Shown: positions 9,203 through 41,238 of the stretch, piece after piece
Layout: each line of letters starts with the position of its first letter
Numbering within the stretch: the stretch's first letter is position 1
DNA from: a virus
IMG/VR virus record: IMGVR_UViG_3300033802_000463
Coordinates: 32,001-96,000 of that record
Reading direction: 5' to 3' (one strand)
Length of the DNA stretch: 64,000 bases
Notes under the pieces: generated by a model
Databases searched by the model: none
What the model was told of the DNA's origin: nothing
The model's input: only the letters and a program-made list of their open reading frames with translations
Position numbers and translations under genes: made by a program

Positions 9203-9218
9203 GCGGATTCACCTCTTT

Positions 9219-11986: not shown

Positions 11987-12118
11987 TTTATCAATTCCTT
12001 TTGTGTGCTCTGATATTGGATGTTCAGATTACTTACTAATCCAATGTACTGATGCAAGTTGTGTGTTCGACCAAGCGGTCAGGCAAGTGGGGTTACACCA
12101 TGAATAATTGCACACAAT
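11987..12118 (-). ncRNA. Structured TR-RT spacer (3' part of DGR template RNA)
   Basis: Inverted repeats TTGTGTGC (12001-12008)/GCACACAA (12110-12117) and ATTGGAT (12015-12021)/ATCCAAT (12039-12045). Position is equivalent to the spacer used for cDNA priming in characterised DGRs. Confidence 0.55.
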
Positions 12119-12251
12119 AGGTGGGTGCCAATATTCGAGTTCACATTAGACGCCACATTATTCAAGTGGAGATTGAACGTGCCTGCATTCGAACCATTAC
12201 TCCAATTGCCGCCAAAATTGGCGACCCGACCCGAATACAGATTCCCATTTT
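12119..12251 (-). repeat. DGR template repeat (TR)
   Basis: Non-coding 133-nt copy of 12298..12430. In the target frame it reads with 12 AAY codons. Confidence 0.95.
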
Positions 12252-12287
12252 ACTTGCCTATATTGGCAATATTAACATAAATTTATT

Positions 12288-13328: not shown

Positions 13329-13329
13329 T

Positions 13330-14400: not shown

Positions 14401-14427
14401 AACACTCCTTTATGAACGCATGGGCGA

Positions 14428-21945: not shown

Positions 21946-24900
21946 TCATGTCGGGTAACTGATGTGAATGTGGTTGTAATGGTCGCTTCGGACAATGAAG
22001 GTCTTTCCTGGATATTTAGCTCGCATCCTGTTCAGGATATCGCTGTCGGCATGAATGATGCCGTCAAATCCAATCTGAGCTGCCAGGTCAATAATGGTTT
22101 CTACCATTTCTCGATCCGCGTTATTGACAAATCGAAGCTTTCCGGCAATGACTTGCATATCAGGCGTATCGATATCAAAGGCAAATCCCGTGTTATGCCA
22201 ACTCAACGAGCTGCCATCTTGTCTTCGATAGGTGGAAGTGATGAGCAGCTTCTTTCCTGTTCTTGCTGTGTACGCCAATCCCAGCTGCTGCAGCAAATCC
22301 GCTGTCGCTTTACGAATCAGCGGCGCCTGCATAATGGGTTGATAGAAGTTCACACTGGTTACAGTATTGGTGCTGACAAGTACGCTGCTTGCTTGCTGAG
22401 GTGTGAGCAAATATTTTCGTTTCCCTGCTTCGCTCCGATCCGTCGGCACTTCCGAATTGGTGATTACTTTCGAAACAGAAGGCATTTTGAAGTTCGGATC
22501 GTGCTTTGCGATTTGAGCCATGATGTTGGCGATTTTCTTATGCCATTGCTTGTCGCTTGCATACTTGACATTCATGCCGACAAGTGTTGGGCCATTGTAA
22601 TATTTTCCGCCAGGCGTCAAATAATTTTCTTTGATTTTGTTCGCTGCATAGTAGATGCAATCTTGAACGGAAGCAAATCGATACGCGCTGTTATACGGAT
22701 CGCGATCGTAGGCTCCATAACCAAACAGGTTATTTTTATCCTTGAAGATCCGCGAAGTCCCCCATCCTGTTTCTAACGCCGCATGAGCAGCCAAGTACAG
22801 ACCATTCATGACATTCTCTCCGTTTGCACTTCCTTCAATCATCAACGGAGATGGCGGAGATGGGATAGAAATTTCAACTTGCTTAAAGTATTTTCCAAGG
22901 CCGGCAAGCCCAGTTCCCTGGAATGCAGCATCAATCGCTTCCGCAGAAATGCCGCTAGGTTTGTTCAAATCCATATTTTCAAAGCTATTTCCAACAACGC
23001 CATACCCACTGCCATTATTTATGGCCTCTGTCAACTCTTCACCGGTGATCAATGAGCGGCGTTCTTCGTATATGGGTTTTCGTGCGGCATCCTTTTCCTG
23101 ACGTTCCAGATGTCCCTTCCATTGCCTTCGAGCTTCTTCAACTTCGAAATTGTAGATTCGAATTGCTTCAGGATCTGGGATCACCTTGTAGCGATGCTTT
23201 TCAAAAAAGCTTGCAGCCAGTTTTGAAAAGTCAATGGGACTGTTGTTATTGTTTTGCATGAGCATATCACCTTCATTGGTGATCGGCGCATATTGCGTCG
23301 TATCCGCGCCCAGGAAGCCGGCAAGAATAGCTCCCACTACATTGTTGGTTAATACGCGCTGCCAGAAGTCTGGTGAGTCACCAATGACAGATCCCATATG
23401 TCCATTGATCCCTGCAGAAAACTCCATTCCATCTTTTCGAAGAACGGCGATGATGCAAGCCTTTCTTGTAAACAAGAACCGCTCAATTAATTCGCTAATC
23501 GAAGCGCAGACGATTTCAACAATCGCAGTTTCGATCAGGAAGGCGGCAATACCTACGGGTCCGCCAAATATCGCCAGAGCACCGCTTGCGGCTTGCCAAC
23601 CGCGTCTTCCCCATTTTGCTGCCTTGGCAGTAACTTTGAAGCCGCGGTTCATGAAATTGCTCGCGCCAACCTTTAACTTTGCCAACTTGGCAGGGTCAAT
23701 TTTATGATAACCCATAAAACGTTTATCGTACAAAGTTTTATCCAAGTTATCAAATAGGGCGATGATATCTTTTTCTGAGAAATTCTCGATTTTAGAAGCA
23801 ATATCCTTCAATATTCCGCTTTTTGTCCAGCGATTCTTCATTTCGTTCGTAACAGGATCGTAACGCCTTACTTCTTTGGATATTGGGTCGATTTCAATGC
23901 GTCCGCCCTTTGTATCGATGGTTCGCGTTTGTTTGAGCTCTTTTCCGGCGCTTTGACTCCATTCTTTGATAATGGAACCGACCTTTGTGGCATTAAACTT
24001 GCCTAACAGAGCATCATATCTGCGTTTAACGACCGCCCAAATCGCATTCATGATTGGGAATGCGCCTTTGTATCCCATGTTTCGCAGCACTGCGCGCAGT
24101 GTATATGACAAGATCATGTATGTGGCTACATGCATCAAGCTTTGAAGCATGGTCATGACGTGACGATCGTAATTAACCACTACGGCGTCCGGCTTAATCA
24201 TCGTAATGAATCCTGTTTCAAAGTTGAACAAATGATTGACTTCCCGCACTTCAATCGGACCATTCATGTTATGGAATGTGTCTTGGAAGTAGCAAATATC
24301 GTGCGGCTTCACAGAAGGATCGCCGGTAACGGTCAGATAGCCGTCATACATTTGTTTTACAAAATCTCTGAGCCCCGCAGCAGCAATTTTAATGGCAACT
24401 TTCTCATCGAAGTACCACTTTGGAAGCTTGTTTAAGAAATGACCGACAAGCGGAATATGCTCGATCAATCGGATGCCTTGTGCGTTTAGCTGCGTATCGA
24501 TCTGCACAGTTCGCTGAAGCTCCGGCCAAATATTCGTATCCACGTAAATGCCTTCTGTTGTATCCAGATTGCCTTCGTTGCTGTAAACACCAACGGCTAC
24601 CGTGTACATGTTTTCAGTTGTGGCAATGATTTGATTCTCCAAAATCGATGTCCAGCTATCATAAATATGATACTGTCTAAACGGTTTGGAGAGCGTTACA
24701 AAATCGTAATGAGATGATTTTGCATCTTGCAAGCCATTGCCTCCGATAGCTTGGTATCCGTATGCAAGTGGAAAGTATGGCTTGCCCATAAATATGGTGT
24801 TTCGGAAATCGAAAGGATGAACAGCCAAAATAAAGTCTTCGCCGATCGCCGCACATACGCTGAGGACATCCCATACGGTTTTATCATACAGATTGATATT

Positions 24901-27900
24901 GATTCCTACTTCGTCGCCTTCCCCAATGCCAAAGAAGTTGCCAAGCTTGTTCCAAAAGCTGTTGGCTTCATCTCGAAGCAAGCCGGTTGTCTTATAAATG
25001 TTTTGTGTGATTTCATTTCGCTGCCGGTCTTCAAAAGCACCATTGAAATTGATCGCATTATGATTGATTGGCGGGCCCGGCATGCCAAAATGCATGATCC
25101 CCAAAGAGTGCTGCTGATAATCGGCATTGCTCCATGCTTTGGAGAGATCGGACCAGAAACCGGTATGATCAGTCAGGATCTCATCAATGATTTCCGTTGG
25201 TTCTTTTTTGCTGAAGACCCATCCGCGCGTAGTATCGCCAGGCGATGCTTTTAACTTGTTGGTAAGCTCAATACCGTCATCCTGACAGATGACCGTAATT
25301 GTTTCTCCGTTATTCTGCAGCTGCGTAATGACGCCATTCATGATGGTTGGCATATTGGCCGCGTTTGAACCATATCCCATCCGGAAGTGAACTCTGGCGC
25401 CAGTGCGCAAATAAATCGAATTGTACCAGTTCGGATTGCGTCCGCGGCGCGATTTCTCAATCTCACGAGCCAGAGATGAAGGATTGAACATTAATTGTAC
25501 AATGTCCCATCCGTTGGTATTTGTAAGATCCATGCTTTTCATAGCATCATCCAAGTTGCCGAATACATTGGACATCTCCAATACAAGGGTGCTCGAAGCC
25601 GTCTTTCTGCTGTTTGTATACATAATGTCGGTGACCGCCCGATAATTAAAGTAATTATCGGACATCTTTGTGGCCGCCACATACTGCCCTTCGTCAACAA
25701 ACAGAAGCAAGAAAGTCGGAAACGCCCGCACAAGTCGGCCGCGGCGGTCATACTTGCGCATATCATGGAAGCTTTCCCGAAAGATCTTGTCAAAATCTCG
25801 GTATTCCTTCTCTGTCAGCTGCGAGTCCGTGAAAGTCGGCGTATCACTGTTCATGTTGATCGTCTTGTAATCCGGAACTGGAAGCTTGCTGTATTTTTGC
25901 GCAATCTGCACGTCCGTCCACTTGTCGATCTTATCAACCTCATTGAGCACGGATTTGATGATCTGCGAAACAAGATACGGCATCTTCTTGTTGCTGTTTA
26001 AGAGCAAATTGTATTCCCGCTCATAACCGAGGTACATCGAGATTGCGCCGACCCAAATGGCTTTTTGTTTTTGCTCCGGCTTTAGATCAAAAGCAGTAAA
26101 TACGTAATCATTGACCAGGTTTGCGCCTTGTACGATATCAAGATAATGCTGCATCAACTTGCAGCCTTGTTCCACATTGTATTCGATGTTTCGCGCCAGG
26201 CTATTCGGATCACCCATGAGCGGACTTACGCGCATCACGCCGATATAGGATGCATTCCGAAGGAAGTTGGCATCCCTAAAGTAACGCATGTCTTGCATCT
26301 GCATGACAGGTATTCCAATCTCTGTAACTTCGATTCCTCCAAGCTCTTTGTTGGCGCCCGGACCCACTTCATAAAATTGACGGAGCTTGGGGTCAAAAGC
26401 TCTGGCCAATGCTAACATGAGAGCTTGATCCACTCTGGGAGCCGTAAGATCCGATTGTTCATTGGACACATCTTGTGCTTTTTTCCGGATCAAGGTCTCC
26501 ATGTCCTGAACAGACAAGTTGGCCACATCGACCGATTGAGGAACCGGTGTGGCGACAACAGGATTCTGTTGCTGCTGTTTGATTTCTTCGATATTATCGA
26601 GAACTTGCTGATCCGGATTTATGGATCCCGGAATAACCGTAGCCTTTCCATTCATCGAATCGCGCCACTCTGATGGAAGGGTAGAGTTTTCGGACAGATA
26701 GCGATCAAGCTCACTGCCAAAGTCTATCGGATCATCGTAGATGAGGAAAAAGTCCGGATCCACATATTCTCCATCATTCAAGTTTGGAATCTCAAACCCC
26801 GCTTCCCTGACTTCTTTATAAGTAGGAAGCTCTAAATCCGGATAGAGTTCAATCATAGACATAAGCTCTTTGATTTTTGATTCATAGATGGCGCGCTTTT
26901 GCCAATCCTGGTCGCTCATGAAATCAGCCAAACCAGCAAAGAAATCGGCATTGCGAATGAAAGGCTTGTCAAAAATATCCCACCATTGGTAGTTGCTGAG
27001 CTCAAACGGAATCGTCTTGTTGTTGGCCTTATCATAAAGCATTTGCACTTCTTCAAGGCGCTTGGCGGCTCGGTTAAATGCAGAGAGCGTCAGCGTGATT
27101 TCATGTACGCCTGGCATCCCTTCTACAGTCGTGGAAACCATATCTTCTACGACTACATACGTGCAGCCGAATAAACGTGTCAATTGATGATCGAACTGGA
27201 TGAATCCATTGGACAAGACTTGATGATACTCCCGATTCAGATATGTAGAGCGGCGAACCAAATTCTCCAGACTGGCAAGAGCTTCCGGATCATCCGTTCT
27301 GAAGCGGGCAATATACACTGCATCTTGGGAGCCCAAATATTGATGTGTTGGCGACTCATGGGCCTGCAGCTGGACTGACGTGATAATGTTTTGGTAGCCG
27401 ACGCTCAACTCTTCGAGTACAAGCCCCGGGATATCCCAGTTATCCATCCGGAACTCATAAGTTTGAAGCAGTTTGTAAATATCATCGGCGTACATGCTGT
27501 CGATTTCTTCATCGAACATAATTTGCTTCCATTCGTCAATCCAACCGGTTGGGATGCCGTCTTCATCTTTGCCGGCAGGACGCGGCACCGGAAAGATGCC
27601 GCCTATCCACATCCAGTCTTCTTCATCAAGTCCTGGCTTATCCTTTTTGTCATTGATCCATTTTTTAATGAGCGTGTTGCGCTTCTCGCGCCACTTCTTC
27701 ATCATTTGCAAATCTTCTTCGGCCACAATGCGAAACATGAAATCGTTATGCAGTTCAATTTGCAGCGGCTCGTAGAACAAGATGTTGCGTTTGGGATTTG
27801 GCTCCAGGCTGCGGCGATAATACCATCGGAACAATGGCCAGTTAAACATCTCCTCGAAGCTTCGCTCTGATTGATCAAAAATGTAAGAGAAGGGATTAAA

Positions 27901-28308
27901 AGCATACATCTGCAGCTGAACCATAAGGCAGTGCGGGAATCCTTTAATCGTCTGCACAGAGATGCCGGCGATCGTTACCGCCTCAATTTGATACGTATCA
28001 TTGAGCAGTTTATTGGATATCGGCAGAAATGGACATTTTCGCACTTGTGCGAGCAATGGCCGCAATTCATTATTAATGCTTTGCATGTTTGGGAAAAACA
28101 AATTGAGCTCAATAATATGATCAAAATATCCGGACGATTTCACCATGCTGCTTCGGCTGCGCAGCATGTTGATTTTTTCATTTTTCATCCGTTTGGTTAC
28201 GGTTATCGCGGTTGGCGGTATATAGAATTGAGAGTCTCCAATTCGCAAATGATGATCACGCAACGCCCCGTACAGGGCGTCGCGATCATCATATCCAAGA
28301 GTAGGCAT
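21946..28308 (-). CDS. Baseplate hub / tail-associated peptidoglycan hydrolase (2120 aa) with GH73 glucosaminidase and M15-type peptidase domains
   Basis: Hub-like [12 protein letters not shown]...NGVIT and [17 protein letters not shown]73 motifs [30 protein letters not shown]15 motifs ITSTYR..SWH..G.AFDI..HIHIS. Confidence 0.85.
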
Positions 28309-28320
28309 GGATTATCACTC

Positions 28321-31300
28321 CTAAGAGTATTGCTCAACTTTATCCCGATACCAAATCCGACTCAAATGGGCTGTATTGTCTGAATGATTCACGTTCATTT
28401 GCACTTTGCCGTTGTACCCGGATTGCTGCAGGGCTTGACCGATCATCGGACCAAAATTTTGAGACCCTTTTCCTTGAGCCGAAATGGTGATATTCGCTCC
28501 CGAAAATCCAGCGTCAATCGGCGTAATTGCAGGCATTGGCGTTCCGCCATACATCATCGATGCGTGCGCACGCGCCTGCTCTGCAGATTGGTAATCTGAA
28601 TTGTAAGGCATTACAGGCTCACTATCGTTAAGAGTATTGTACCCTATAATACCTGCAAGCGCTAGACCTCCAATAAGAGCAGCTTTCTTATTCCTTGGAC
28701 CATTTGGACCATTGAAGAATGCATCGAGTGATTGCGAGACTTTATTGTATGTTTTTGGTCCAAGCATTCCACCTGTTCCATCTTCAATGATTTCAGCAAT
28801 GGTGCCGGCCGGTCCCTCCAGCCGCTTGGCCATCATGGAATCCAATCCAGGTTCAAGCGGACTGACCTTTCGATATTCCGGCGTAATATCCATGGGCTCC
28901 GGATATTGAATATCAAGTCCCGCTTCTTCTCGAAGCAGTCGCTGCAAAAGCCCCATGTATTGATTGGTGCCTGTCATATCTGGATTCTTACCCATGATGG
29001 TATCGACAATCTTGGTTAATCCATGATCTGATAGCCTCATGCCGCGGCTTGTTCCCGCGCGAAGCTCGACATTCTTGAAGTCTTCCTTCATGCGCTTCAT
29101 GGCTTCTTGAAGATGGCCGGCAGCCATTTCCAAGTCATATTCTTTGGCAAAACGACCTTCAAAAAGCCGTTTGTCTATGTCGATTGCTTCCTTCCAGTTC
29201 CCATAACGAATAGCTTCCAGCAATTCCGAAGCACCGGATCGTGCCATGAGGACTTGACCAGTACCGTGTTTCGAGGAAATCGTGAGTTTCTGTTCTAAGC
29301 CCTCCCCGAGATTAAAGATCGCTTGTCTTGCCGCCTCATTGTCCGCATAGTAGTGGTTGGCAATTTGACGCATCATGTAGTTCAAGTCTGATGCTTGCCC
29401 AACCAACTCTTTACCGGATTTCGCAAGCATTTCATCAATTTGATTTGGAGCAATGGCCTCAATTCTTCCGGATTCGCCGGCTAAATCACGCAATCCGAAT
29501 CTGCGCTCTTTTTCTCCATCCACTGCTTTTTTCATGAATCCTTCGATATAATCAGATGGATATTCTTCGCTATTTGCCAGCGCGCGCTGATATGCCGCTT
29601 CGTGCCGTTGGCGCCGAGCATATTCTTCTGCTTTATATCGTTGCTCCAATTCTTCTTGAACTTTTTCATCATGTATCGCAAGCAGCTGATTGTAGTCGCC
29701 ATCCGAGTCAGCTGCAAGGAATTTGGCCAGAAGCGAAGTTACATGATGTTGCCCGGTGGCTACATTCTCGCTTACTTTCAGCCTGGCTACTTGTACAGCC
29801 TTATCTGTGAAAGTCGGATATCGCACATCGACCACATAGAAATCTTTTCCATTCACAATGTGATCGTAGACGCCAAGAGCCCTTGCTTCATCCGGAGAGA
29901 TAAAGACATGTTCGCCTCCGAGTTGACTTGATATCGATGTCGGCAAAACCTTCGTGAGACCCGATGAGGAGAATGGCATATTCGTCTTAAATACACTTTC
30001 TCCTGTTTGTCCTTTGGAAGCTGTCACATGCTTTACCAAACCTTCGACATAGCTGTTTACCGATCTCTGAAGCCTTTCCATGGCTCGCTGACGTTCGATA
30101 TCTGTGCCGGCCTTTCCAACCTCTGCTGCACGCCGATAAATATCAGCAATATGTTGCTGCATTTCACGCTTCCAGATCTCGTTCCCCTTTCCCTCATTTT
30201 TCATGAAGGGAACAAAGATGCGATTGATCTGTCTTCCATCCACATTGACCGTTAGCGGCGTTTTTTGACCACTGATTTCAGCATGCGGCAATTCCAGCCA
30301 GTATCCATGGTAATCGTTATCCTCGACCAGGCTTCGCAGATAGTCGTCATCCAGGATGGTGCCATAGATGGTCGCTCGGTTTGTATCTGTGGTCGGAAGC
30401 GGCAAGAGATCTCCCAATCGCACAGTCCGTTTTTCAAAATCCGGATCGACAGCTTGTTCTCCGTAGACAAGTCCGCGCAATGCATGCACCATGCTGATTG
30501 CTTCCTGGGCCCGGCCGGTTTCTCTGGCAGAAGTCTTCATGTGATTCCAGATATAATCAAATGTGTGATTATACCCTTTTTGTTTGAGCATTCCAAGTTC
30601 TCGGAACCCATACTTGACACCTTTTACTTCACCTTCGTTATACACGATGTTGACCATTCTGCCATCATCACTAATATCATAATTCAAGATGGCTTTTCGT
30701 TTTCCATCAACCATGGTGGAGTAGGTTTGAACTTGTGCTGCACGCATTGCCTGAATGCCCCATACAACGCCCTGTTCGGATGTCTCTGAAATGCCGAGCT
30801 GTTCAAACAGCTTGTAGAAATTCTCGACATTGATGGACCTGTATTTGTTTACCTTTGTGACATCAAGAAGTTCAACAGTTCCATCGGCGTTGATTGTGGC
30901 CTTCAAACCCACTCTTCCTCTGTTGATCATGGCCACGGCTCTTTTCTTGTCTTCTTCGCTCATCTGATCGACATAATATTTCAGCTTGTTTGCTTGCGCG
31001 CGCAAAGCGCCGCCAAAGTCTCTGTGTTTGGCAATATCAGGATTGTAAACCGCCCCGATGCCCTCTACACCAGTGAGCTCCTCCAAAAAGCGCTGGCCAT
31101 AGCCGAACTCTCCGTTCAATTGCCCGCCTCCGATGGTTGTTTTCTCAATATCGAAGGTGAATTTATTGGCCTGCTCTTTGTATTCAATGGCAAATGCATT
31201 GTCGCTCATTTCTGATGCGATTCGTCCGACGTGCCTCTGATCGTAGAACACATCTTCCCGGCGGCCGTCAATAATCCGGTATCCAAGTCGCTCACCCGGC

Positions 31301-34300
31301 AAAATGTCAATATTTGTCCGGAGATTTCCATCCGCGTCGATGAATTTTTCATCCCAATAAATCTCGTCTCCTCGGTAAATTTTGTAGTTCTTCATCTTGA
31401 AGCGATTGACGAGATCCCTGTTCATCAGCGCTTGCTGCTCATAAACATTGGGATAGCGGACCGGATTGATATTGCCGCTGACATCAATAATGCCTTCGGA
31501 TCGAAGAATGCGGCGTCCTTCTTCTGTTTCCATCATTCGCTGAATGGCCTCATCGACTTGAGCCTGACTCATGAGAGCCGTTTTAACATGCACTTCCCTC
31601 TTATACGGAAGCACTTGATCCAGTCGATCTTGTAATTTGGTTTTCACCATTGGCTCGGTACTGATCCAGGCTGACGACTCGTTCAGTATATTTTCGAGAT
31701 CACGATCGATCGCATAAGAGTTCATAATCTGAACGGCATTATCCCGGCCCATATTGGTGAAATGACCATATGGGATCAAATCCCGGGCATCCATTCGGCT
31801 GGCACCGCCATCAATTACCACATCACTTTTGACTGCAGAATAAAACAGATTACCGATGCCGTTTGCTTTCGCCCACTGAGGCAGATCTTTACGAATCATG
31901 AACCGCGCTTCATCGCTTAAATCTTCGAGTGACACGAATGGATGAAGTTTCTTTTTATCCGCATTCAAAATAACCTCTTTGTTATAGAAGTCATCATCGG
32001 AAATAAGGCCGCGTTCATAGTAATCTTGAATCATTGCGGAGTGGGCATATACACGAGATTGCTTGGCCAAATCGGATTCGTTGCGCCGCACTTTCAAGTC
32101 ATCATCCAAGTCCCGCTTCACTCCAGACAAGACGGTAACTTGATTGCGAACCAATCGCCTGGCCAGTTTATTTGCTTCTTCAAATTCTCCTTTTTGAATC
32201 GCCTCAACCATATTTCGATAATTCCATTGGTCGTTTTCAGCCATGAGTTTGGGATCTGTCAGCATCATCGCCAATTTCTCGACCGAAGAAATCTGACGAT
32301 TCTCTCTATTGATGCGAATCACATCAGTTACCGCATTAAGATGCTGGTTTCCATACACAAGCGTTCCTTGCCGGCTGACAAGCGGCACGACCATTTCAAA
32401 CGCTTTCGGATGGGCCTCGTTTGATCCTGAAATCAGATGACGCATGACACTCATGCTGTCCTCTTTGTTGAACATGGTAATGATAGCTTGCGTCCCTTCC
32501 CTGTTCATGGAAAGAACCGTCTGCATGCCTGGATTGATTTGGTTCAGATGACTGATGATTTGCTCCACGGCTTTACGGTTATTTGGATTCAATCCTGTAA
32601 TCGGATGTCTGCGATCCAACTGATTGAAGATTTCCCCGATGTCGCCTTGAGACAAATCGGGCCTTACAACAAATCCATTATCAATCAAATATCCTTGCAT
32701 GCCGCGCGCTTGCCCAATCACCGACTGAATCATTTGATGACCGGCTTGTTTGGATATTCGCTCTACGGATTCTCGCTTGCGAAGCGACTGTTCCGTGATG
32801 TTTTGCATCATCAAACGCTGATTTTCCATGAGATCAAGCGCCAGGATTTGAATGGATTGCGGGATGGTCAGATTTCGCCCATGATAATCCCGGATGAGAT
32901 TTTGCATGTATTCGTCTTCGATGATGCCTGAATCGTTTAGCGAAGCAAGCAAGGTCTTGAACCGTTCTTCCCGTACCACCAATTTTTCGGACTCGGACAA
33001 ATCAGCAGTATCGCTATTTACATATGAGCTTAATTGATTGATAGTATAATTCACATTTTGCAAGGTTACATTTCTACTCTTCCCTGTGATGCGGTCGCGG
33101 AATGTAAAACCGCGCTGCTCATAAGGAAGCGGTTCCCGAATCTCTTTATGATCTCCCGCAATTTCTTTTACTTGCTCGTGAAACAAAGCCCAGGCAACAC
33201 TCTTTTTCTGCTCATCCAATCCGCTTTTGTCGATGGCGTCGATTGCACTTTGATACAGCTGCCGTTCTGACATCAATCTTGGCAGCATGCGCCAAAATGC
33301 TCTTTCCTCTGCTTCGTTGTATACCCATGTTTTTGATACCGAATCCCAAAGCGAGTTAAAGTCCATCAGCTCTCTCATTTCGTCCTTGTTGATCCGTTTC
33401 TTGAGCAACCTGCCAATAATTTTTTCACGGGCCTGCTCATATTTCTCTGGAGTCCAATGACGGATAAATTGTCCGTTCTTGATTGTCAGCTCGTCAAGAC
33501 GCCGGGAGGCTTCAGCCTCAATGGCGCTCCACCGGCCGGCAGCAAATTTTTCATAGACCGCTGCATTTGCATACATGCGTCGAGCAGCCCGAAATCCTTT
33601 GGTCGCACTGTCATCCAAACTAAACAAGTTCTCATAGCGGCGACGTGCCAAATCGGATTCTCGACGATACTCAATCATTTTCCGCATTTTCTTGCTCAGG
33701 TTACTCACAGGCATGAAACTTCGGTGATAGAAATCCGCGATTTCATATGCTGCATTTTCGCCTTCACGCACCACAAAAGAACGAAGCGTTGGATTATCCG
33801 CGTTGACAAACTCGATGGCCCATCTTGGAATCCCGCCGGACGATAGGTCACGAATGCCGGCTACGCGATAAAACGATTCCGCGTTGATGACATTCTGATT
33901 AAATCCCGGTCGGAAGATTCGATATGTCCCATCTTCGGCCAACTCCGCCATGTAATCCAAATGACTGCCTTTATAGTTGCTGACTGCCCGGGTGGCAAAC
34001 AACAGATCATTTGTCGTTAGCGGTTGATTGGAGTACATCAAGTAAGGAAACCGTTGTCCTAATTTTCTCGCCTTGTACCGCTCGTTCACTTCCATGTGCG
34101 GCAGCATGCGGTCAAAATATTCCCAGGTATTTGCCACGACACCGCCAACCCCATGCATGCCTGTATCCGCTGAAGCCGCGTGTGCATCTCCCGTATCCAA
34201 TCCGAGCGTTCTGCGCCACTCTTGCAGCGTCCATGGACCTTCGACAAATGGCATGTCTTTTGTCCGGCCATAGATATCATGCAAATCTATAGGATTGCGG

Positions 34301-35298
34301 ATGATGGATTGCATGACAGCTTGATAATCCATATGATATTTTGGACCTTGAATCTTGAGACCAACACGATCCGCCCATCGCTGCAGCGTCGGCAAGTCAA
34401 AACGATCACCGTTCATGGTGACAAAATAACTGTTGCGATGCCTGGAAAGAAATTCATTGTATTCATTAATGACTTCTTCATATCCAGCGCCATTCGCAAT
34501 CAAGTTTTGCAGACCGCTGCGCATATGGCGAACAAACCGGTTTACATCTTGACTCAGAACGATTTGCTGAATTTCCTTGCCATGCAACACGCTGTGAATC
34601 AAGCTGTTGTGTCTGACCTCTTTTCCAAAGGATGCGGCCGTATATCCCTCCTCCGCGATCGAGGAATAACGAATCAAGTCCACCAGCGTTCGCTGTTGGC
34701 TAGGATTCAACTCATGAAAACGGCCGGTACGATACATGTAAATCAGATGATTCAATTCCCGCTGCATGATTTCATCCGGCCTAATCAATCGATTAAAACG
34801 AAGCCGTTTTGATTCTCCAATAACTTTGCCGCTTCGCATATTGATGGCATTTGCGGATATTTCTGACACAAAAAATTTATCGGATGCCGTATCTCCAAGT
34901 GTTTCAATATCCAATCCAAAGAATCGTGCATTTTTTAGCGTTCTTGTTCGCTCTGCAAAATGACGAAAAGTTTCGATATGACGTTGTGCATCGAATCGAT
35001 AATCACTGTAAGGATCAGCATTGCTTACAGGATTCAAAAAACTCCAAATGGTGGTGCCGCCCATATTAATGACGCCATTCTTCAGCGGCAGCGCAGGTAT
35101 TTTATTGATCGCATCGTTCAATTCAACAAGTGAAGGATTAATCTCATTGCTTCGTGTTGTCTTTGGTTTGTTAAACGAACCGTAAGCGGAGAGCACCACC
35201 CGTTTATGGCGATCGGCCGGCACATATTGCAAGCCGGCCTCGATCCCTTTGTTCACATTCTGAAATAACCTGTCATAATTCGTTTCATTTGTCGCCAT
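28321..35298 (-). CDS. Giant protein with N-terminal DEDDh exonuclease and fused beta/beta'-like two-barrel RNA polymerase motifs (putative virion RNA polymerase)
   Basis: Exonuclease motifs LDIET, NGDRFD, HAASAD. RNAP-like motifs NVYEQQALMN, KFTFDIEK, GVKYGFRE, IADIYRR, LQRSVN, RYPT, ADSDGD. Start at MATNET after GGAGGTG. Confidence 0.72.
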   Translation of the reverse strand: MATNETNYDRLFQNVNKGIEAGLQYVPADRHKRVVLSAYGSFNKPKTTRSNEINPSLVELNDAINKIPALPLKNGVINMGGTTIWSFLNPVSNADPYSDYRFDAQRHIETFRHFAERTRTLKNARFFGLDIETLGDTASDKFFVSEISANAINMRSGKVIGESKRLRFNRLIRPDEIMQRELNHLIYMYRTGRFHELNPSQQRTLVDLIRYSSIAEEGYTAASFGKEVRHNSLIHSVLHGKEIQQIVLSQDVNRFVRHMRSGLQNLIANGAGYEEVINEYNEFLSRHRNSYFVTMNGDRFDLPTLQRWADRVGLKIQGPKYHMDYQAVMQSIIRNPIDLHDIYGRTKDMPFVEGPWTLQEWRRTLGLDTGDAHAASADTGMHGVGGVVANTWEYFDRMLPHMEVNERYKARKLGQRFPYLMYSNQPLTTNDLLFATRAVSNYKGSHLDYMAELAEDGTYRIFRPGFNQNVINAESFYRVAGIRDLSSGGIPRWAIEFVNADNPTLRSFVVREGENAAYEIADFYHRSFMPVSNLSKKMRKMIEYRRESDLARRRYENLFSLDDSATKGFRAARRMYANAAVYEKFAAGRWSAIEAEASRRLDELTIKNGQFIRHWTPEKYEQAREKIIGRLLKKRINKDEMRELMDFNSLWDSVSKTWVYNEAEERAFWRMLPRLMSERQLYQSAIDAIDKSGLDEQKKSVAWALFHEQVKEIAGDHKEIREPLPYEQRGFTFRDRITGKSRNVTLQNVNYTINQLSSYVNSDTADLSESEKLVVREERFKTLLASLNDSGIIEDEYMQNLIRDYHGRNLTIPQSIQILALDLMENQRLMMQNITEQSLRKRESVERISKQAGHQMIQSVIGQARGMQGYLIDNGFVVRPDLSQGDIGEIFNQLDRRHPITGLNPNNRKAVEQIISHLNQINPGMQTVLSMNREGTQAIITMFNKEDSMSVMRHLISGSNEAHPKAFEMVVPLVSRQGTLVYGNQHLNAVTDVIRINRENRQISSVEKLAMMLTDPKLMAENDQWNYRNMVEAIQKGEFEEANKLARRLVRNQVTVLSGVKRDLDDDLKVRRNESDLAKQSRVYAHSAMIQDYYERGLISDDDFYNKEVILNADKKKLHPFVSLEDLSDEARFMIRKDLPQWAKANGIGNLFYSAVKSDVVIDGGASRMDARDLIPYGHFTNMGRDNAVQIMNSYAIDRDLENILNESSAWISTEPMVKTKLQDRLDQVLPYKREVHVKTALMSQAQVDEAIQRMMETEEGRRILRSEGIIDVSGNINPVRYPNVYEQQALMNRDLVNRFKMKNYKIYRGDEIYWDEKFIDADGNLRTNIDILPGERLGYRIIDGRREDVFYDQRHVGRIASEMSDNAFAIEYKEQANKFTFDIEKTTIGGGQLNGEFGYGQRFLEELTGVEGIGAVYNPDIAKHRDFGGALRAQANKLKYYVDQMSEEDKKRAVAMINRGRVGLKATINADGTVELLDVTKVNKYRSINVENFYKLFEQLGISETSEQGVVWGIQAMRAAQVQTYSTMVDGKRKAILNYDISDDGRMVNIVYNEGEVKGVKYGFRELGMLKQKGYNHTFDYIWNHMKTSARETGRAQEAISMVHALRGLVYGEQAVDPDFEKRTVRLGDLLPLPTTDTNRATIYGTILDDDYLRSLVEDNDYHGYWLELPHAEISGQKTPLTVNVDGRQINRIFVPFMKNEGKGNEIWKREMQQHIADIYRRAAEVGKAGTDIERQRAMERLQRSVNSYVEGLVKHVTASKGQTGESVFKTNMPFSSSGLTKVLPTSISSQLGGEHVFISPDEARALGVYDHIVNGKDFYVVDVRYPTFTDKAVQVARLKVSENVATGQHHVTSLLAKFLAADSDGDYNQLLAIHDEKVQEELEQRYKAEEYARRQRHEAAYQRALANSEEYPSDYIEGFMKKAVDGEKERRFGLRDLAGESGRIEAIAPNQIDEMLAKSGKELVGQASDLNYMMRQIANHYYADNEAARQAIFNLGEGLEQKLTISSKHGTGQVLMARSGASELLEAIRYGNWKEAIDIDKRLFEGRFAKEYDLEMAAGHLQEAMKRMKEDFKNVELRAGTSRGMRLSDHGLTKIVDTIMGKNPDMTGTNQYMGLLQRLLREEAGLDIQYPEPMDITPEYRKVSPLEPGLDSMMAKRLEGPAGTIAEIIEDGTGGMLGPKTYNKVSQSLDAFFNGPNGPRNKKAALIGGLALAGIIGYNTLNDSEPVMPYNSDYQSAEQARAHASMMYGGTPMPAITPIDAGFSGANITISAQGKGSQNFGPMIGQALQQSGYNGKVQMNVNHSDNTAHLSRIWYRDKVEQYS

Positions 35299-35313
35299 GT
35301 TTTGCACCTCCAC

Positions 35314-38300
35314 TTACATCAATGATGCCATGTTGTATCTTAAATAATTGTCGATCTCATCGCTGCGATCTTGCTGGTATTGGATCCCAATCCGTGTTGT
35401 GGATCCGGTATTGGGAGTCACCATGACATTGACATTTTTTAACCCTTGTCCTTCCAACACTTCTTGGATAGTGCGGCGCACTCTTTTGTAGCTGAATCCT
35501 TCGTTCTGATACAGATCATTTCCATAAGGCGTTAGATCTGGCGCCAGACGGGAGGCTTCAACATCATCCGGCCAAAAGTTAAAGTCGGAGAGATCCAGTT
35601 GCTGATTTTGAACCACTTTCAATTTGATGCTCTCCAAGTCAAATTCTGGCCGCCATCCTTCCCAATCTGCATCTGGAAGCACGTACTTTTGGAAGTATTC
35701 TTCAAGCGGCGGAACTTCTTCATCTCCATAGCCCCACAATGCTTTGTATATCCGCCTTTGATTTCTCGGAACAAGTTCCAGAATCCTCTCCCGGTCCCGC
35801 TCCGGCGCATTTACAAATTCGTCGAAAAACCACCGATCTTTCGTTGGAAAGGCGCGGGCAACCTTCATGCGATCGTCATACGGATCGATAGCATATAAGG
35901 TTTCTTCACTTTTCTCCTTATATTGTAACGCTTGACGTACAATATCGGGAAGTATTAATTCATCCCAACGGCTCTCTTGAATTTGAGCAAGCTCCTGATT
36001 GATTTCTCTTCGGCGTTCCTCCCAACCTTTGGGCTGAGTAATATACAGCCGCCGCTTTTCTTGCTCCAACTCATATCGGCGCTGCTTAACTTCAGCTTCT
36101 TTTTGTTCAATGTCTGCGAGTAGTGCTTCAACATCATAACCTTGTGCAGCGGCTTCTCGCTTAGCAGCCTCATACAAGCCAGTATATTTCATATACTTCA
36201 AGATGTCGAAGTATTCATTGATGTCATGCTCGATCCGTCTCCGTTTCGGGATCCATACTTCTCCATCATGAGTATATTCGTAGTGCCTTGCATATGCATG
36301 GCCGAGACCGCCAATCAGTGCTCCAACGATGGCTCCCGCGCTAGTGCGTCTTTTACCGCCTCCGCCCAGCACGGCCATAATCACCCCGCCGATTAAACCG
36401 CCGCGCATCATCGACTCCAGCAGATCGTGACGAAACGCAGCCTGGAAGCTTGGGATCAAGTAGTCACTTGTCAGGAAGTTGCGCCAAGTTGCCCAATCCT
36501 TTCCGTAAATCTGGTCTCGCTCGTATTCTTCAAGCGCTGTGCGCACTTGCAGAAATTTGGTATTTAGCGCCGATTCAAAATGCGCGATGGATTCCCATCT
36601 TGCTCCTTCAGCGATCTCATCAGTTGTAAAGCGCGCGTGAACCGCCGGCGCCGAGAAATCCGTCAGATTCTCTTTCATCAGGCCGCGGCGCAGGATTTCC
36701 TGGTTGATGTTTTTCAAGCCATCAAAGACAACGGCGCGCATCGTCTGATACGTATCATCTGATATTCGCCGGCTTTGATCCGCATCAACACCGATTGTGA
36801 TTTTATCCCCTACACTGATATAAGATTGCAAAACACCTTCCGCATTCGGCCGATAATCTACGCCGGCAAGCCGAATTGGCGTATCCCCAAATTCCTTCGT
36901 GAGAAACGTGTAATCATCCAGGAACTTGGTCACAGTTACTTGATATTTTTCAATATCTGCATATTTGAATCGGTAATCCACAAATTCATATTTTTGTTTT
37001 CGCCTCGCAACTTGCCGTTTAATCTCGGCGATTTGTTTACGAAGTTCCGGATCCGTAACGTTGGCCACCACATAATCGCGCCAAAATTTATATTCATCAC
37101 TCCATGGCGCCACATCAGCCAGAATTTTGAACTTGTCGAATGCACCGTAACGTCCGGTTTCATCCGGATGCAGCGTATTCAGTTTTTCATATGCTTCACC
37201 GGGCAAGCGATATTCTCCATGCTCAATTTTCGTGTAGGGATCGCCTACCTGGAAATTGATAAAGTAATTTGCTCCGGGGAGCCAATCTGGCATTGTGTTG
37301 CGAACCGGATTATAAGTATCCAGCTGCCCGTCATCGCGTCGAATGAAACGCCGGCCAATTTCGGAGACTGGTCCTCCGAGCGAACCAAGATTCATTCCCC
37401 AAAAACGGTTTGACAGGTTATTGGCTGCATCCGCTTTTTGGATGACCATTTCGCCTGCATAGGTGTTGTCTCCGACGACCTCCTCAAACATCCACTTGTA
37501 AACCCCAAGCGGTTCTGTCCAGTTTTGCGCAGTTTCTTGGATTCGCCAATTGAGACTTGTCGGATCATTCAATTCGCGCAGTTTTCGATTACGCACTTCG
37601 TTTTTGTACGCAAACTCCTCGGTTCTAAGTGCGCGCGGACTTGTATCCAATATGGGCTCGATTGGAGCAGCCATTGCAAACAGCTGATCAATGGAATAGT
37701 CTTCTTTTGCAATGCTGGACGGCACATAGATTGCTTGTCCGCTGGCGATTTCTTGCGCCACATAGGCACCTGTCGGATTTCCTTGGTCGTCTAATTCATT
37801 GGCGACAAAATATCGGATACCTTGCTCTTGACCGATTGTTTCCTCAGCTCCAGTCAAACCCGCAGCATAAGAGGATCCGTAATCGGTTGGTCCCGCATAA
37901 ACGATATGTTCAATTCGGCCGGCTGGAGATATGCGAGTCACAACCGGTGCCGTCGGTCGATCACCAAGTTCCTGATTTTCAGCATCAACCAAGACGGGAT
38001 CGCCCCAATACTCCGGATGCATATAGCGCGATGGCTTGATCAGCTGTCCGATCGTCGCATTCCCAATATCACCAAAAAACATCGTGTTCGGGTTAAACAG
38101 AGAACCGGTAATCAAGTAAGGGCGATCATAGTAGTGTTTTTGTTCCCAGTAATATTCATTTCCGTTCAGGACTCGTTTGAAGATCCCAAGCGGGTTTTCA
38201 AAGGTCGGCAAAATGTTCATTTCACCGTACCGTTCTTCGCCCGTCAGGTTTGTATTGGAATGTTCCCAATCACTCATCGCCAAACGCCATGCATTCGGTC

Positions 38301-41214
38301 TGAACTCTGTAATGCGATCGCCGCGATAAGCGGACTTGGAGCCCCACAGCCACCACCGGCTCTTACGCACCTCATCCACGCCATTCATCAGATAATCCGC
38401 GTACTCTTCAGCCGTGTACGTATCCTTCTCATCGATCGGCACAGTATTGCCCGTCAGAATATTGCCAATTGCTTCGATGGGGCTTCCGGATGTAAAGACA
38501 GCACCAAGAACATGCCCAGGTCCAAATTCACCAATCCCGGGCAAATACCATTCAGGCATCGCATCAAAATGCTCAATGCCCGGGTAAAGCATGCGTCTTC
38601 GAGCAAGGTCATCATTGACACCCATAGCATCTCTTGCCATGGCTGCCTCCAGATTTTCTCTTGCCCGCATGTTCTGCCATCTTGCTGTGATTCCCATGCC
38701 GGTATGTTTCTGCAGCTCATAATCGGCATATTGATAAGCTTCATACCCCAGATAAATTGGCAAAAATCGCTTCAAGAACAGAGATGATACGGTTTTCAGC
38801 GGACTGGACAGTGAATCCTGCGAAAAGCCAAGCCCCCAATCGCCGAGCGCATCCTGCAGACGGAACCATGGATACTGGCCGCCAAAAATCGAAAGTGTTG
38901 TGAAATCCTCCATATTTCGCCGGCCTGTGGTCCAGCTGAGCTGCTTCGCAATATCTTTGATGGTGTTGATGCCATCCCATCCGTTAAAGGCCTTGTTGAC
39001 ATATAAAAACTCGTCATTCACCAGGTTCGGCGGCTTCTGTCCTGTGAATTTTTCATAAATCGGATTCGTGCGTCGTACCGCTCTTAATACATCTTCACGA
39101 AATTCTTGAGAAAATGTGCCTTGTCCTAAAATCAAATGATTGACACTATCAACGGCAAAGGCTGGATTATCGTAAAACTGTGAGCTGGCTCGACGCAGCA
39201 GATGATGATTGAGCAGGAAATTTGCGTTTTGCGCATCGGCCGACAAAATGTCTCCGCTCCGATACAAGTCATTGAAGATCTTTCTGAGATTTAGATTGGG
39301 ATGACTTGCGTTATTCTCCGTTATCTGACGAATCAGCTCAAGACTAACTTCTCTCCGGATCCGATCGTGTCCGCTTTGAATCCGGGTATACTCATCAACA
39401 AGTAAGTTGCTCTCGCCAATCGGCCGCTTCGCCGCAAGGAACGAGTCCGGATCACGGCTGTACTTGCGCCAGATTTGGCGAATGACTTCTCCGGATTGAC
39501 TTTCCTGATAATTTTCTCCGAAGAATCGAAACAGCTTCATGATATGTTCTTCATTGGAGAAATTAATGCCGTTCTTCTCTAAGAATTGCTGAATATGCCC
39601 CGGCAGATACGTGCGAATCCTATTTAGCACACGCGGCGACAGCTCAACACTGTATTTATCAAAATAGCCGCGAAGCGCGCGCAAGCTCTCCTCATCAACA
39701 CCGCGATGCATGGCAGTGGTTACGATATTGCGCTCCCATTCTGGGTTCCAAATCTTTGTGATTTGGCTAAGCAGCTTGGGGCCAATCGCATCCTTGTCTT
39801 GCCGACCCAAATCGAATAACTTTTTGAATCGGCCGCGCGTATCTTCTTCGATATCCATAATGCCGCCTGTGCTGCGGTGAATTTTTGCGATCGTACCGAA
39901 GCGAGAGGATGTTGCATACATCTTTCGATGAGGATTAAGAATCTCCAAGGCTCGGGTTGGATCATTGACGGCCGCGGTATCCATCAATCTCACAAAGTCT
40001 CCGTTGATGAATACCAGATCCTCGTCCAGCGTACTGTTGATGTCTTTTCCCATTTGTGCAAGAAGGCTTTGATGGCGCGCTCCCATCGATACAACACGAA
40101 AGCTTCCGACTTCCCTTGCTTCCCGGATATTGATTTGATCCCGCAGGTGAAGCAGTCCGCCGGGCACCGTATTAGCTGCCTTTTTCTTTAGACCGAACAT
40201 CATCTCGTCGAATACTTTGTAATCCGTATAATCAATGATGTTTCCTGCGCTGTCGGTTTTGACATACAAATTGGCATCGAAGATTTGTTTGCGAAAATCA
40301 TCATGCCGGCGAATCATGTCATTAAGTTGGGCGACGGAATCCGCATCCAGCTGTATTCTTCCCGAGCTGTGCATAGCAAGAACATCTTCAACGGTTGCTT
40401 GCCGCTGTCCGCGAATATACCGGCTGAATGCAAATTCCCGCTTTACGACACCTTCTGCATTTGCTGCTGCCATTGTTTTAAGTTTGTCTTGCATGACATT
40501 AACGTATTGGCGAAACTCATCGCTGGTTCGGTAATTTACATTTCGCAATGCGTTCCGTGCATCCAATGCATGATCGATCAGGCTTTGTTCAATGCCCTGC
40601 TGATGCAAGAGTCCGCGAAGCTGATCGTCAGTATAATGACTCAAAAATCCAGGATCTTCCCGCCAACCAACCTTCATTGCCTCACGAACACGCTGCATGG
40701 GCGCGTTGCCAGCGCGCCGTTCCAGCTCCAGCATTACATCGCGGAAGCGAAGCCGATTTTCAATGCGGTAAGGGATATCATTTTGCAGCCGCTGATTGAC
40801 TTGCCGAATATACCGCAGCATATCGTATTCATTTTCCGGATCCCGCGCAGTAGCAAAATCGCTAAATTTGGACCTACGTTCATCCACGATGCGCCGGCGC
40901 CGCTCTGCAAAGTCACGCATCATTCTATCCAGGCGAGAAACGCTCATATCTTGACGCAACGCTCCCTGATGATCGAGCGTTTCTCGCAGGGCTAGAAGCG
41001 ACCCCTTTCCTTCAATCTCAAGAAATCGAGCAAACCGTTTCAGTGCTCCGATTCGATGCAGGACCGCTAATGCACCGACGCCAATGGCGGCATTAACAAG
41101 CAATGAACGAGCAGGCGATTGATCATCTTCGTCACTTGTCAAGAAGCGCGTAAGAGGCCGTTCATCTGTGCCATAATACTGCGCATACCTGGATTGTCCT
41201 GTTTCATCCGCCAT
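35314..41214 (-). CDS. Tape-measure-like giant tail protein (~1966 aa) with degenerate thermonuclease-like domain
   Basis: Directly follows the tail chaperones. Helical, with Gly/Ala-rich hydrophobic segments. SNase-like segment VTVTKFLDDYTF...IRLAGVD...NINQEILRRGL. Confidence 0.65.
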   Translation of the reverse strand: MADETGQSRYAQYYGTDERPLTRFLTSDEDDQSPARSLLVNAAIGVGALAVLHRIGALKRFARFLEIEGKGSLLALRETLDHQGALRQDMSVSRLDRMMRDFAERRRRIVDERRSKFSDFATARDPENEYDMLRYIRQVNQRLQNDIPYRIENRLRFRDVMLELERRAGNAPMQRVREAMKVGWREDPGFLSHYTDDQLRGLLHQQGIEQSLIDHALDARNALRNVNYRTSDEFRQYVNVMQDKLKTMAAANAEGVVKREFAFSRYIRGQRQATVEDVLAMHSSGRIQLDADSVAQLNDMIRRHDDFRKQIFDANLYVKTDSAGNIIDYTDYKVFDEMMFGLKKKAANTVPGGLLHLRDQINIREAREVGSFRVVSMGARHQSLLAQMGKDINSTLDEDLVFINGDFVRLMDTAAVNDPTRALEILNPHRKMYATSSRFGTIAKIHRSTGGIMDIEEDTRGRFKKLFDLGRQDKDAIGPKLLSQITKIWNPEWERNIVTTAMHRGVDEESLRALRGYFDKYSVELSPRVLNRIRTYLPGHIQQFLEKNGINFSNEEHIMKLFRFFGENYQESQSGEVIRQIWRKYSRDPDSFLAAKRPIGESNLLVDEYTRIQSGHDRIRREVSLELIRQITENNASHPNLNLRKIFNDLYRSGDILSADAQNANFLLNHHLLRRASSQFYDNPAFAVDSVNHLILGQGTFSQEFREDVLRAVRRTNPIYEKFTGQKPPNLVNDEFLYVNKAFNGWDGINTIKDIAKQLSWTTGRRNMEDFTTLSIFGGQYPWFRLQDALGDWGLGFSQDSLSSPLKTVSSLFLKRFLPIYLGYEAYQYADYELQKHTGMGITARWQNMRARENLEAAMARDAMGVNDDLARRRMLYPGIEHFDAMPEWYLPGIGEFGPGHVLGAVFTSGSPIEAIGNILTGNTVPIDEKDTYTAEEYADYLMNGVDEVRKSRWWLWGSKSAYRGDRITEFRPNAWRLAMSDWEHSNTNLTGEERYGEMNILPTFENPLGIFKRVLNGNEYYWEQKHYYDRPYLITGSLFNPNTMFFGDIGNATIGQLIKPSRYMHPEYWGDPVLVDAENQELGDRPTAPVVTRISPAGRIEHIVYAGPTDYGSSYAAGLTGAEETIGQEQGIRYFVANELDDQGNPTGAYVAQEIASGQAIYVPSSIAKEDYSIDQLFAMAAPIEPILDTSPRALRTEEFAYKNEVRNRKLRELNDPTSLNWRIQETAQNWTEPLGVYKWMFEEVVGDNTYAGEMVIQKADAANNLSNRFWGMNLGSLGGPVSEIGRRFIRRDDGQLDTYNPVRNTMPDWLPGANYFINFQVGDPYTKIEHGEYRLPGEAYEKLNTLHPDETGRYGAFDKFKILADVAPWSDEYKFWRDYVVANVTDPELRKQIAEIKRQVARRKQKYEFVDYRFKYADIEKYQVTVTKFLDDYTFLTKEFGDTPIRLAGVDYRPNAEGVLQSYISVGDKITIGVDADQSRRISDDTYQTMRAVVFDGLKNINQEILRRGLMKENLTDFSAPAVHARFTTDEIAEGARWESIAHFESALNTKFLQVRTALEEYERDQIYGKDWATWRNFLTSDYLIPSFQAAFRHDLLESMMRGGLIGGVIMAVLGGGGKRRTSAGAIVGALIGGLGHAYARHYEYTHDGEVWIPKRRRIEHDINEYFDILKYMKYTGLYEAAKREAAAQGYDVEALLADIEQKEAEVKQRRYELEQEKRRLYITQPKGWEERRREINQELAQIQESRWDELILPDIVRQALQYKEKSEETLYAIDPYDDRMKVARAFPTKDRWFFDEFVNAPERDRERILELVPRNQRRIYKALWGYGDEEVPPLEEYFQKYVLPDADWEGWRPEFDLESIKLKVVQNQQLDLSDFNFWPDDVEASRLAPDLTPYGNDLYQNEGFSYKRVRRTIQEVLEGQGLKNVNVMVTPNTGSTTRIGIQYQQDRSDEIDNYLRYNMASLM

Positions 41215-41238
41215 AACATTCACCTGCTTTTCTTTGCA

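Follow-up and report, generated by a model that had tools for sequence, protein, structure and literature searches.

To our knowledge, delivery of an RNA polymerase (RNAP) through a phage tail has been demonstrated experimentally only in the P23-45 group of Thermus siphoviruses. In phage P23-45, as described by Chaban et al. 2024 (PMC10770324; PDB 8h2m/8h2n), the protein gp96 contains an N-terminal two-barrel RNAP fused to the tape measure; its activity was shown experimentally, and it transcribes the pre-early genes, including gp64, the gene of the non-virion RNAP. Here we analyze a 64,000-nucleotide (nt) stretch of viral DNA, hereafter the window (positions 32,001 to 96,000 of IMG/VR record IMGVR_UViG_3300033802_000463), and in particular its minus-strand gene at 28321-35298, which encodes a protein of 2,325 amino acids (aa). 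We find it fairly probable that this protein is a tail-delivered, virion-associated, single-chain RNAP of the cell-type, two-barrel, DNA-dependent kind, whose gene fills the tape-measure slot in a contractile-tailed jumbo phage, a relative of 0305phi8-36. P23-45 gp96, which was missing from the first-pass annotation of this DNA, would then be its closest functional precedent.

Several traits are common to both proteins. Each is a giant from the tape-measure locus with a two-barrel RNAP bearing a DxDGD motif (predicted in our case), each carries the polymerase N-terminal to hydrophobic segments, each phage has a second, non-virion two-barrel RNAP, and the same role can be proposed for both, namely pre-early transcription coupled to DNA entry. 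On the other hand, gp96 comes from a siphovirus, whose tail does not contract; this 5,002-aa protein has its polymerase right at the N-terminal end and carries a metallopeptidase but no exonuclease, whereas the 2,325-aa protein belongs to a contractile-tailed phage and has its polymerase in the C-terminal half, with a fused DEDDh exonuclease.

Other two-barrel enzymes also offer points of comparison. In crAss-like phage phi14:2, gp66 (PDB 6vr4) is a virion-packaged single-chain two-barrel RNAP of about 2,180 aa, similar in size and type to the protein studied here; that phage has a short tail, however, and the structural match is weak (Z 6.5). phi14:2 gp66 is carried as cargo and is not known to be encoded in a tape-measure slot. 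The RNAPs of phiKZ and AR9 are jumbo phage enzymes too and their beta-like subunits are the best matches to the first half of our polymerase model, but they are built from four or five polypeptides instead of a single chain from a tail operon. YonO from SPbeta, QDE-1 and the PF05183 family are single-chain two-barrel enzymes, and QDE-1 can be aligned over the full length of the model (Z 11.5). Membership of the 2,325-aa protein in the YonO/RNA-dependent RNA polymerase (RdRP) family PF05183 was nevertheless rejected, as the protein has no Pfam match and no profile similarity to the PF05183 protein that this genome encodes elsewhere. No virion role is known for YonO, and we know of no other two-barrel RNAP that bears an exonuclease.

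Predicted polymerase fold and catalytic signature

Residues 1115-2115 (counted from the ATG at 35298; frame-based numbering is higher by 5) were modeled with AlphaFold2 from a 33-sequence alignment without templates, so that residue n of this model is protein residue n+1114. The mean predicted local distance difference test score (pLDDT) was 87.4 and the predicted template modeling score (pTM) 0.86. Foldseek against the PDB gave at least 500 matches at an expectation value (E) <= 0.001, and the 48 rows listed are without exception (48/48) RNAP second-largest-subunit or beta' chains. With VIA-align, which searched 48,161 representative chains, model residues about 10-480 matched beta-like subunits at Z 14.3-15.6, the best being those of the non-virion RNAPs (nvRNAPs) of AR9 (7s00_C, 15.6) and phiKZ (7ogp_C, 15.2), with Pol IV (7eu0_B, 14.8), Pol I (4c2m_B, 14.8) and a bacterial beta chain (6j9e_C, 14.3) among the further matches. 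Model residues 497-1001 matched Rpb1/beta' chains (7ob9_A, Z 11.1; 2pmz_A, 10.6; 9mu7_A, 10.5; 6edt_D, 9.2), and isolated double-psi barrels aligned with model residues 661-774. The rows that are not of polymerase length are isolated double-psi barrels and helical bundles. Residues 1124-2115 are thereby predicted to form two modules of the two-barrel RNAP superfamily, first a beta-like and then a beta'-like one. The fused beta-then-beta' order had been proposed in the first-pass annotation; it is borne out by the predicted fold, in which both halves match RNAPs and double-psi barrels are present, and by the strict conservation of the catalytic signature.

Single-chain RNAPs in the VIA-align list are QDE-1 (11.5), RDR2 (11.2) and P74 gp62 (8.6), with P23-45 gp96 (7.1 and 6.4) and phi14:2 gp66 (6.5) lower down. 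Since the scores of gp96 and P74 gp62 are below those of beta (15.6), beta' (11.1) and QDE-1 chains, there is no specific structural kinship with gp96; together with the contractile tail, the other domain order and the exonuclease, this leads us to reject membership in the gp96 family. In BFVD, the top matches are two long viral proteins (TMq 0.56-0.57), one of which is named 'Minor tail protein' and comes from an uncultured siphovirus; Acinetobacter phage ME3 (two proteins) and Microcystis phage MaMV-DC come next, and then giant-virus RNAPs. Directly after a conserved ISSKH (K2010 in 32/33, H2011 in 30/33), the model has a low-confidence loop between two long helices (aa 2011-2020, model residues 897-906, pLDDT < 50), whose arrangement may resemble that of a trigger loop.

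Conservation was counted in the 33-sequence alignment, which has a mean column identity of 22%. R1826, P1828, D1864, D1866, G1867 and D1868 are each found in 33/33 sequences, as are K1157, Q1190, E1287, E1385, K1386, T1388, K1424, R1566, E1567 and G1967, and K1379 is found in 32/33. The DxDGD loop and the lysines singled out in the first-pass annotation are thus conserved among homologues, the loop reading DHDGD in gp095 of Bacillus phage WH1 and DYDGD in gp034 of Bacillus phage KLEB27-3. Eight residues universal to two-barrel enzymes, among them the beta-side Asp (Rpb2 D837), are given by Ruprich-Robert and Thuriaux (PMC2919709). By sequence, five of the eight on that list are certainly present in the 2,325-aa protein, the counterpart of the universal R-x-P (Rpb1 R446/P448) being R1826/P1828. 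For the two universal lysines (Rpb2 K979/K987), K1379 and K1386 are good candidates: they are 7 residues apart and ordered between E1287 and R1566/E1567. In two-barrel enzymes the R-x-P precedes DxDxD by about 35-40 residues; here the distance between the R and the first D is 38 residues, compared with 35 in Escherichia coli beta' as paired by hhalign. The beta-side motif is Y-E-[Q/N], where E1287 is invariant and is followed by Q in 28 sequences, by N in 5 and never by an acidic residue; the earlier caveat on the beta ED pair, which reads EQ in the protein, thus extends to the whole alignment as E-Q/N.

Sequence comparisons with known RNAPs gave little. Pfam had no family for the protein at E <= 0.1, and neither phmmer nor a 6-sequence profile found an RNAP among the PDB sequences. 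Against E. coli beta', hhalign with the 33-sequence profile produced one match, to beta' 421-483, which is non-significant (E 0.13) and pairs RYPTF...ADSDGDY with RAPTLH...NADFDGD; against E. coli beta, it produced one match, to 1265-1292, also non-significant (E 0.35), pairing GV.GHRE with GQRFGEME. The by-eye pairings of RYPT...ADSDGD and GVKYGFRE are therefore the sole regions that hhalign selects, and they are non-significant by sequence alone. Still, the resemblance lies above chance, because the signature is invariant in a divergent alignment and the fold searches return RNA polymerases.

Exonuclease domain, C-terminal module and family

The N-terminal part was modeled separately (residues 1-1130, true numbering) with pLDDT 87.6 and pTM 0.77, so this region is also compact. 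For aa 112-402, the best VIA-align match is the Pol III epsilon subunit (1j53_A, Z 14.6, root-mean-square deviation 2.4, 163/174 residues aligned), and all 50 of the 50 rows listed have the DEDD exonuclease fold or one closely related to it, the exonuclease domains of PolC and of family-B polymerases being other strong matches. Foldseek of this model against the PDB gave nothing at E <= 0.001; its sub-threshold rows include TREX1/2, PolC exonuclease and CRN-4 with a probability of about 1. The catalytic motifs are Exo I D130/E132, Exo II D301 and Exo III H373/D378, and these five residues are at least 90% conserved in the 33 sequences and invariant in 6/6. Sequence searches alone support the assignment weakly (PHROG, E 0.002 at frame-numbered residues 279-330; PDB profile, E 0.3). 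We thus have a DEDDh 3'-5' exonuclease predicted to be fused N-terminally to the polymerase part. The well-folded middle region (aa 403-1123) remains without fold assignment because the exonuclease domain fills the VIA-align list; an Atlas search of this region gave no usable match.

At the other end, the first-pass annotation had seen a hydrophobic segment followed by a tape-measure-like tail. This was correct, and the arrangement is shared with the assigned tape measure of 0305phi8-36, gp146 (ORF146, 2,537 aa), annotated 'hypothetical tape measure protein; identified as virion protein by mass spectrometry'. hhalign aligned the C-terminus with gp146 residues about 2391-2535, with a probability of 72.5% and E 3.2e-5 for the 6-sequence profile and 90.2% and E 1.5e-6 for the 33-sequence profile; the latter detected no similarity to gp146 beyond the last ~130 residues. 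gp146 is thus like the 2,325-aa protein in its slot (between the gp145 and gp147 homologues), its size and its last ~130 residues, and unlike it in having no DxDxD anywhere. According to Hardies et al. 2007 (PMC2147016), the tape-measure assignment of gp146 was made mainly from tail length, and only its last 60 residues could be aligned to the positional counterparts in related prophage-like elements. The same pattern is seen here, as our profile matches only the end of gp146. The Kyte-Doolittle mean of the hydrophobic segment falls short of the value commonly required of transmembrane segments, which makes a membrane helix no more than plausible.

gp146 (11573-19186 of the locus extract) has an Exo-I-like YLDIETTG at residue 1222. 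In Moorella phage MTATph1 (9772-17128 of the locus extract), the gene in this slot is CDS0027, of 1,309 aa, with an Exo-I-like LDLETTT at residue 869; a transposase gene, two short open reading frames (ORFs) and then the hub gene follow, and the giant gene of this phage may have been interrupted by an insertion element. The slot may always be filled by a nuclease-bearing giant, with a polymerase in some lineages only. Between the gp145-like and hub genes of Acinetobacter phage vB_AbaM_ME3 lies ME3_36 (6467-11278 of the locus extract), a 1,603-aa hypothetical protein; its only hhalign match with our profile is non-significant (E 0.27) and pairs R-E-P...D-H-D-Q-D with RYPTF...DSDGD.

The protein belongs to a family that is already represented in cultured phages. 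A word-seeded search yielded 6 proteins including the one in the window, the nearest being 58% identical and encoded on a 213-kb contig of a Paenibacillus isolate. With phmmer, residues 1145-2045 retrieved 39 proteins at E <= 0.001 from 1.84 billion representatives, about 30 of which have a length of 2,160-2,730 aa and align over this whole stretch. Among the clusters of ten homologues, the named members are a 'hypothetical protein' (Alicyclobacillus, Oceanobacillus, a Bacilli metagenome-assembled genome), one is labeled 'DNA polymerase III epsilon subunit-like protein', and several lie on 194-213 kb contigs. WH1 gp095 ('virion structural protein', 2,515 aa) is an end-to-end homologue (hhalign probability 100%, E 1.2e-51) and carries RYPT...DHDGD; in the phage collection, tblastn finds relatives of it only in Bacillus phages Edson and KLEB27-3; KLEB27-3 gp034 carries RYPT...DYDGD and is labeled structural. 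Database labels for full-length relatives are hence hypothetical, structural or 'DNA polymerase III epsilon subunit-like'. The whole 2,325-aa protein gave nothing with tblastn at E 1e-5 against 50,697 phage records, which reflects a limit of sensitivity since hhalign clearly identifies WH1 gp095 as a homologue. Our literature search found no paper describing this family and none on vB_BceM_WH1 or KLEB27-3; Supplementary Data 3/4 of PMC10770324 (two-barrel families and two-RNAP genomes) may list it. A 2021 survey of jumbo phages credits 0305phi8-36 with a YonO-like enzyme only (PMC7824862).

Tail module and second polymerase

The gene is intact over 28321-35298 (2,325 aa plus stop, from the ORF list and its translation), within a stop-free frame spanning 28321-35313. 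Its likely start is the ATG at 35298, because a GGAGGTG ribosome site lies 6 nt upstream and because the matching Met is the start in 5/5 aligned homologues; the resulting 2,325 aa confirm the length first proposed. All the motif positions first reported agree with our recomputation, namely VHVKTALM from 31593, NVYEQQ ending at 31432, KFTFDIEK at 31164-31141, GVKYGFRE at 30621-30598, RYPT at 29823-29812, DSDGD at 29709-29695 and AALIGGLALAGIIGY at 28683-28639. The features are collected in Table 1.

Table 1. Coordinates of the gene, its predicted parts and the related genes (window positions unless stated).
Feature	Position	Strand	Basis or remark
Whole gene	28321..35298	-	Order: exonuclease, middle region, beta-like, beta'-like, hydrophobic segment, C-terminal tail
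Ribosome-binding site GGAGGTG	35305..35311	-	Read from sequence, 6 nt 5' of ATG
Predicted DEDDh (DnaQ-like) 3'-5' exonuclease, aa 112-402	34093..34965	-	Model, VIA-align and motifs
Well-folded alpha/beta region, aa about 403-1123	31930..34092	-	pLDDT mostly >85
Predicted beta/Rpb2-like module, first double-psi beta-barrel, aa about 1124-1594	30517..31929	-	VIA-align and conservation
Beta-like module residues E1287, K1379, E1385, K1386, R1566, E1567	within 30517..31929	-	Conservation counts
Predicted beta'/Rpb1-like module, second double-psi beta-barrel, aa about 1611-2115	28954..30468	-	VIA-align, Foldseek
Beta'-like module residues R1826, P1828, D1864-x-D1866-G-D1868	within 28954..30468	-	33/33 each
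DSDGD, candidate catalytic Mg-binding loop	29695..29709	-	D, D, G, D each 33/33
Gly/Ala-rich hydrophobic segment AALIGGLALAGIIGY	28639..28683	-	Top 19-residue window, Kyte-Doolittle mean 1.33
C-terminal ~130-residue module common with gp146: hydrophobic segment and ...DNT..LNR.WYRDK tail	28324..28725	-	hhalign
Upstream giant, 1,969 aa, homologue of 0305phi8-36 gp145 (virion structural protein)	35314..41223	-	BLASTP
Downstream giant, 2,120 aa, baseplate-hub-like with glucosaminidase domain	21946..28308	-	Pfam, PHROG, tblastn
YonO/RdRP-type PF05183 gene, 1,143 aa, RNP and DNDGD	record 111109-114540, beyond window	+	E 8.4e-11

Three adjacent minus-strand giants (35314-41223, 28321-35313 and 21946-28308) lie inside a contractile-tail module, flanked by PHROG matches to sheath and virion proteins on one side and to baseplate wedge proteins on the other; tube-like proteins are also among the flanking matches. 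The upstream giant matches gp145 of 0305phi8-36 by BLASTP (E 1e-113, 37% identity over 634 aa; E 4e-65 over 727 aa); it has Gly-rich hydrophobic stretches near residues 1600-1645, and an Atlas search with it gave a weak lead only, to a SNase-family cluster (score 0.76). The downstream giant matches PF01832 (E 4.1e-15), phrog_20474 (1215 bits) and, by tblastn, the 0305phi8-36 ORF147 'baseplate hub protein' (E 3e-64), and is also homologous to giants of Moorella phage MTATph1 and of Bacillus phages KLEB27-3, WH1 and Edson. The order gp145-like gene, 2,325-aa gene, hub gene is that of 0305phi8-36 ORF145/146/147, and the giant triad recurs in 2/2 full related IMG/VR loci (1952/2349/2132 aa and 1950/2267/2060 aa). 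The first-pass annotation placed the gene between a tape-measure-like gene and the hub. The hub does adjoin it, but the upstream gene is the homologue of gp145 and not of the tape measure assigned in the literature; going by gene order, it is the putative polymerase gene itself that occupies the gp146 'tape measure' slot. The protein does not look like a canonical tape measure of the helical-ruler type, residues 1-2115 being predicted as compact mixed alpha/beta, and the resemblance to the assigned tape measure is confined to the C-terminal ~130 residues.

The window is part of a 136-kb record whose completeness is estimated at 69%, and the YonO-like gene of this record lies in a region of short, mostly plus-strand genes with many gaps, preceded by a 410-nt intergenic gap. 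hhalign showed no similarity between the 2,325-aa family and this PF05183 protein (probability 0.4%). Besides the 136-kb record, 0305phi8-36 and a 99%-complete relative carry PF05183; scans of WH1 (a complete genome), Moorella phage MTATph1 and a 53%-complete genome did not detect it. That every carrier has a second RNAP was consequently rejected as a rule, with PF05183 in 2/5 of the other genomes scanned, and as WH1 is complete a two-polymerase cascade is not general. A promoter hunt in the 136-kb record yielded only the word GCATTACAA(T), and we claim no polymerase-specific promoter. This word occurs in 15 copies, 7 of them intergenic on a crude ORF map, for example at record 107072-107090 (beyond the window) and at about 42507 in the window, and once it forms the perfect palindrome ATTGTAATGCATTACAAT. 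From its letters, it looks like a sigma-A-type -10 (TACAAT-like) element or an operator.

Possible functions of the 2,325-aa protein

How should this protein then be understood? Our preferred interpretation, which we judge fairly probable as a whole, is that of a virion-associated RNAP delivered by the tail, and several observations weigh against it. The polymerase fold rests on predicted structure, and Pfam, phmmer, hmmsearch and hhalign all lack a significant RNAP match. E1287, K1379 and K1386 are candidates placed by their order in the sequence, and the candidate beta-side carboxylate, which may correspond to Rpb2 E836 or to D837, is an invariant Glu instead of the Asp of D837. The structural match to gp96 is modest (Z 6.4-7.1), and gp146, verified by mass spectrometry, matches only at its C-terminus and is devoid of DxDxD. 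Finally, the two-polymerase cascade is not general (no PF05183 in WH1), and residues 1-2115 are predicted to be globular, unlike a helical ruler, so the protein would need unfolding to pass the tail tube.

This last point would be avoided if the protein were an active RNAP that is made late with the tail genes, stays out of the virion and serves the infected cell, for instance in late transcription. The awkward passage of a large globular protein through the tube favors such an enzyme, which nonetheless appears unlikely to us: the gene is inside the tail operon, between the genes of the gp145-like virion protein and of the hub, the C-terminus is homologous to a virion protein verified by mass spectrometry, and cultured phages have homologues annotated as structural proteins, although these are labels only. 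The E-Q/N pair, in place of E-D or D, could alternatively reveal a structural tail or ejection protein of polymerase descent that has kept the fold and lost polymerization, all the more as the syntenic gp146 has no DxDxD and thus indicates that the slot can be filled without a polymerase. Yet R-x-P, D-x-D-G-D, K1386 and E1287 are 33/33 at 22% mean column identity, an invariance which argues for selection on an active site and not on a scaffold, and we hold a loss of activity to be improbable.

The exonuclease suggests another chemistry. DEDDh domains are classic proofreaders of DNA polymerases, the best matches of the one found here are those of Pol III epsilon, PolC and family-B exonuclease domains, and the two-barrel superfamily includes archaeal PolD (PMC7824862). 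One could therefore imagine a PolD-like enzyme that synthesizes or primes DNA at genome entry with the DEDDh domain as its proofreader. However, all the polymerase-length structural matches listed are RNAPs with no PolD chain among them, and R-x-P-T-[FL]...A-D-x-D-G-D is an RNAP context of the beta' type, which makes a DNA-synthesizing enzyme quite unlikely. As for a chance resemblance or a modeling artefact without any polymerase core, the failure of sequence-only searches is what would be expected, but two independent structural aligners gave RNAP-only top lists for both halves in the beta-then-beta' order, BFVD also yields viral RNAPs and the signature residues are invariant. We regard it as very improbable.

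Coming back to a tail-delivered polymerase, the predicted structure suggests that the phage carrying this gene probably injects its own transcription enzyme. The C-terminal module would anchor the protein to the hub or the tail lumen during tail assembly. On contraction of the sheath, the protein would leave through the tube, at least partly unfolded and with its hydrophobic C-terminal end first. The polymerase could then transcribe the first genes of the entering DNA without the host RNA polymerase, possibly including that of the YonO-like enzyme, as P23-45 gp96 does for gp64. The exonuclease might act on nucleic-acid 3' ends at entry, through transcript trimming or DNA-end resection. A bolder hypothesis, to which we give little credence, would be that a lineage of Bacillota jumbo contractile-tailed phages, including WH1, Edson and KLEB27-3, has swapped the body of its tape measure for an ejected RNAP-exonuclease machine, in which the exonuclease proofreads transcripts or resects the end of the entering DNA, thus creating a single-stranded template for a promoter-free start.

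Since the cultured Bacillus phages WH1, Edson and KLEB27-3 all have a full-length member of the family, packaging is directly testable. If the protein is both active and packaged, the strategy of a tail-delivered RNAP would extend to contractile-tailed jumbo phages of Bacillus-like hosts, and it would have originated there from a different two-barrel branch, closer in predicted structure to the multisubunit beta/beta' enzymes. It would also provide an RNA polymerase with an unusual partner, a fused exonuclease, and raise the mechanical question of how a globular enzyme of ~260 kDa sits in the tail and leaves it.

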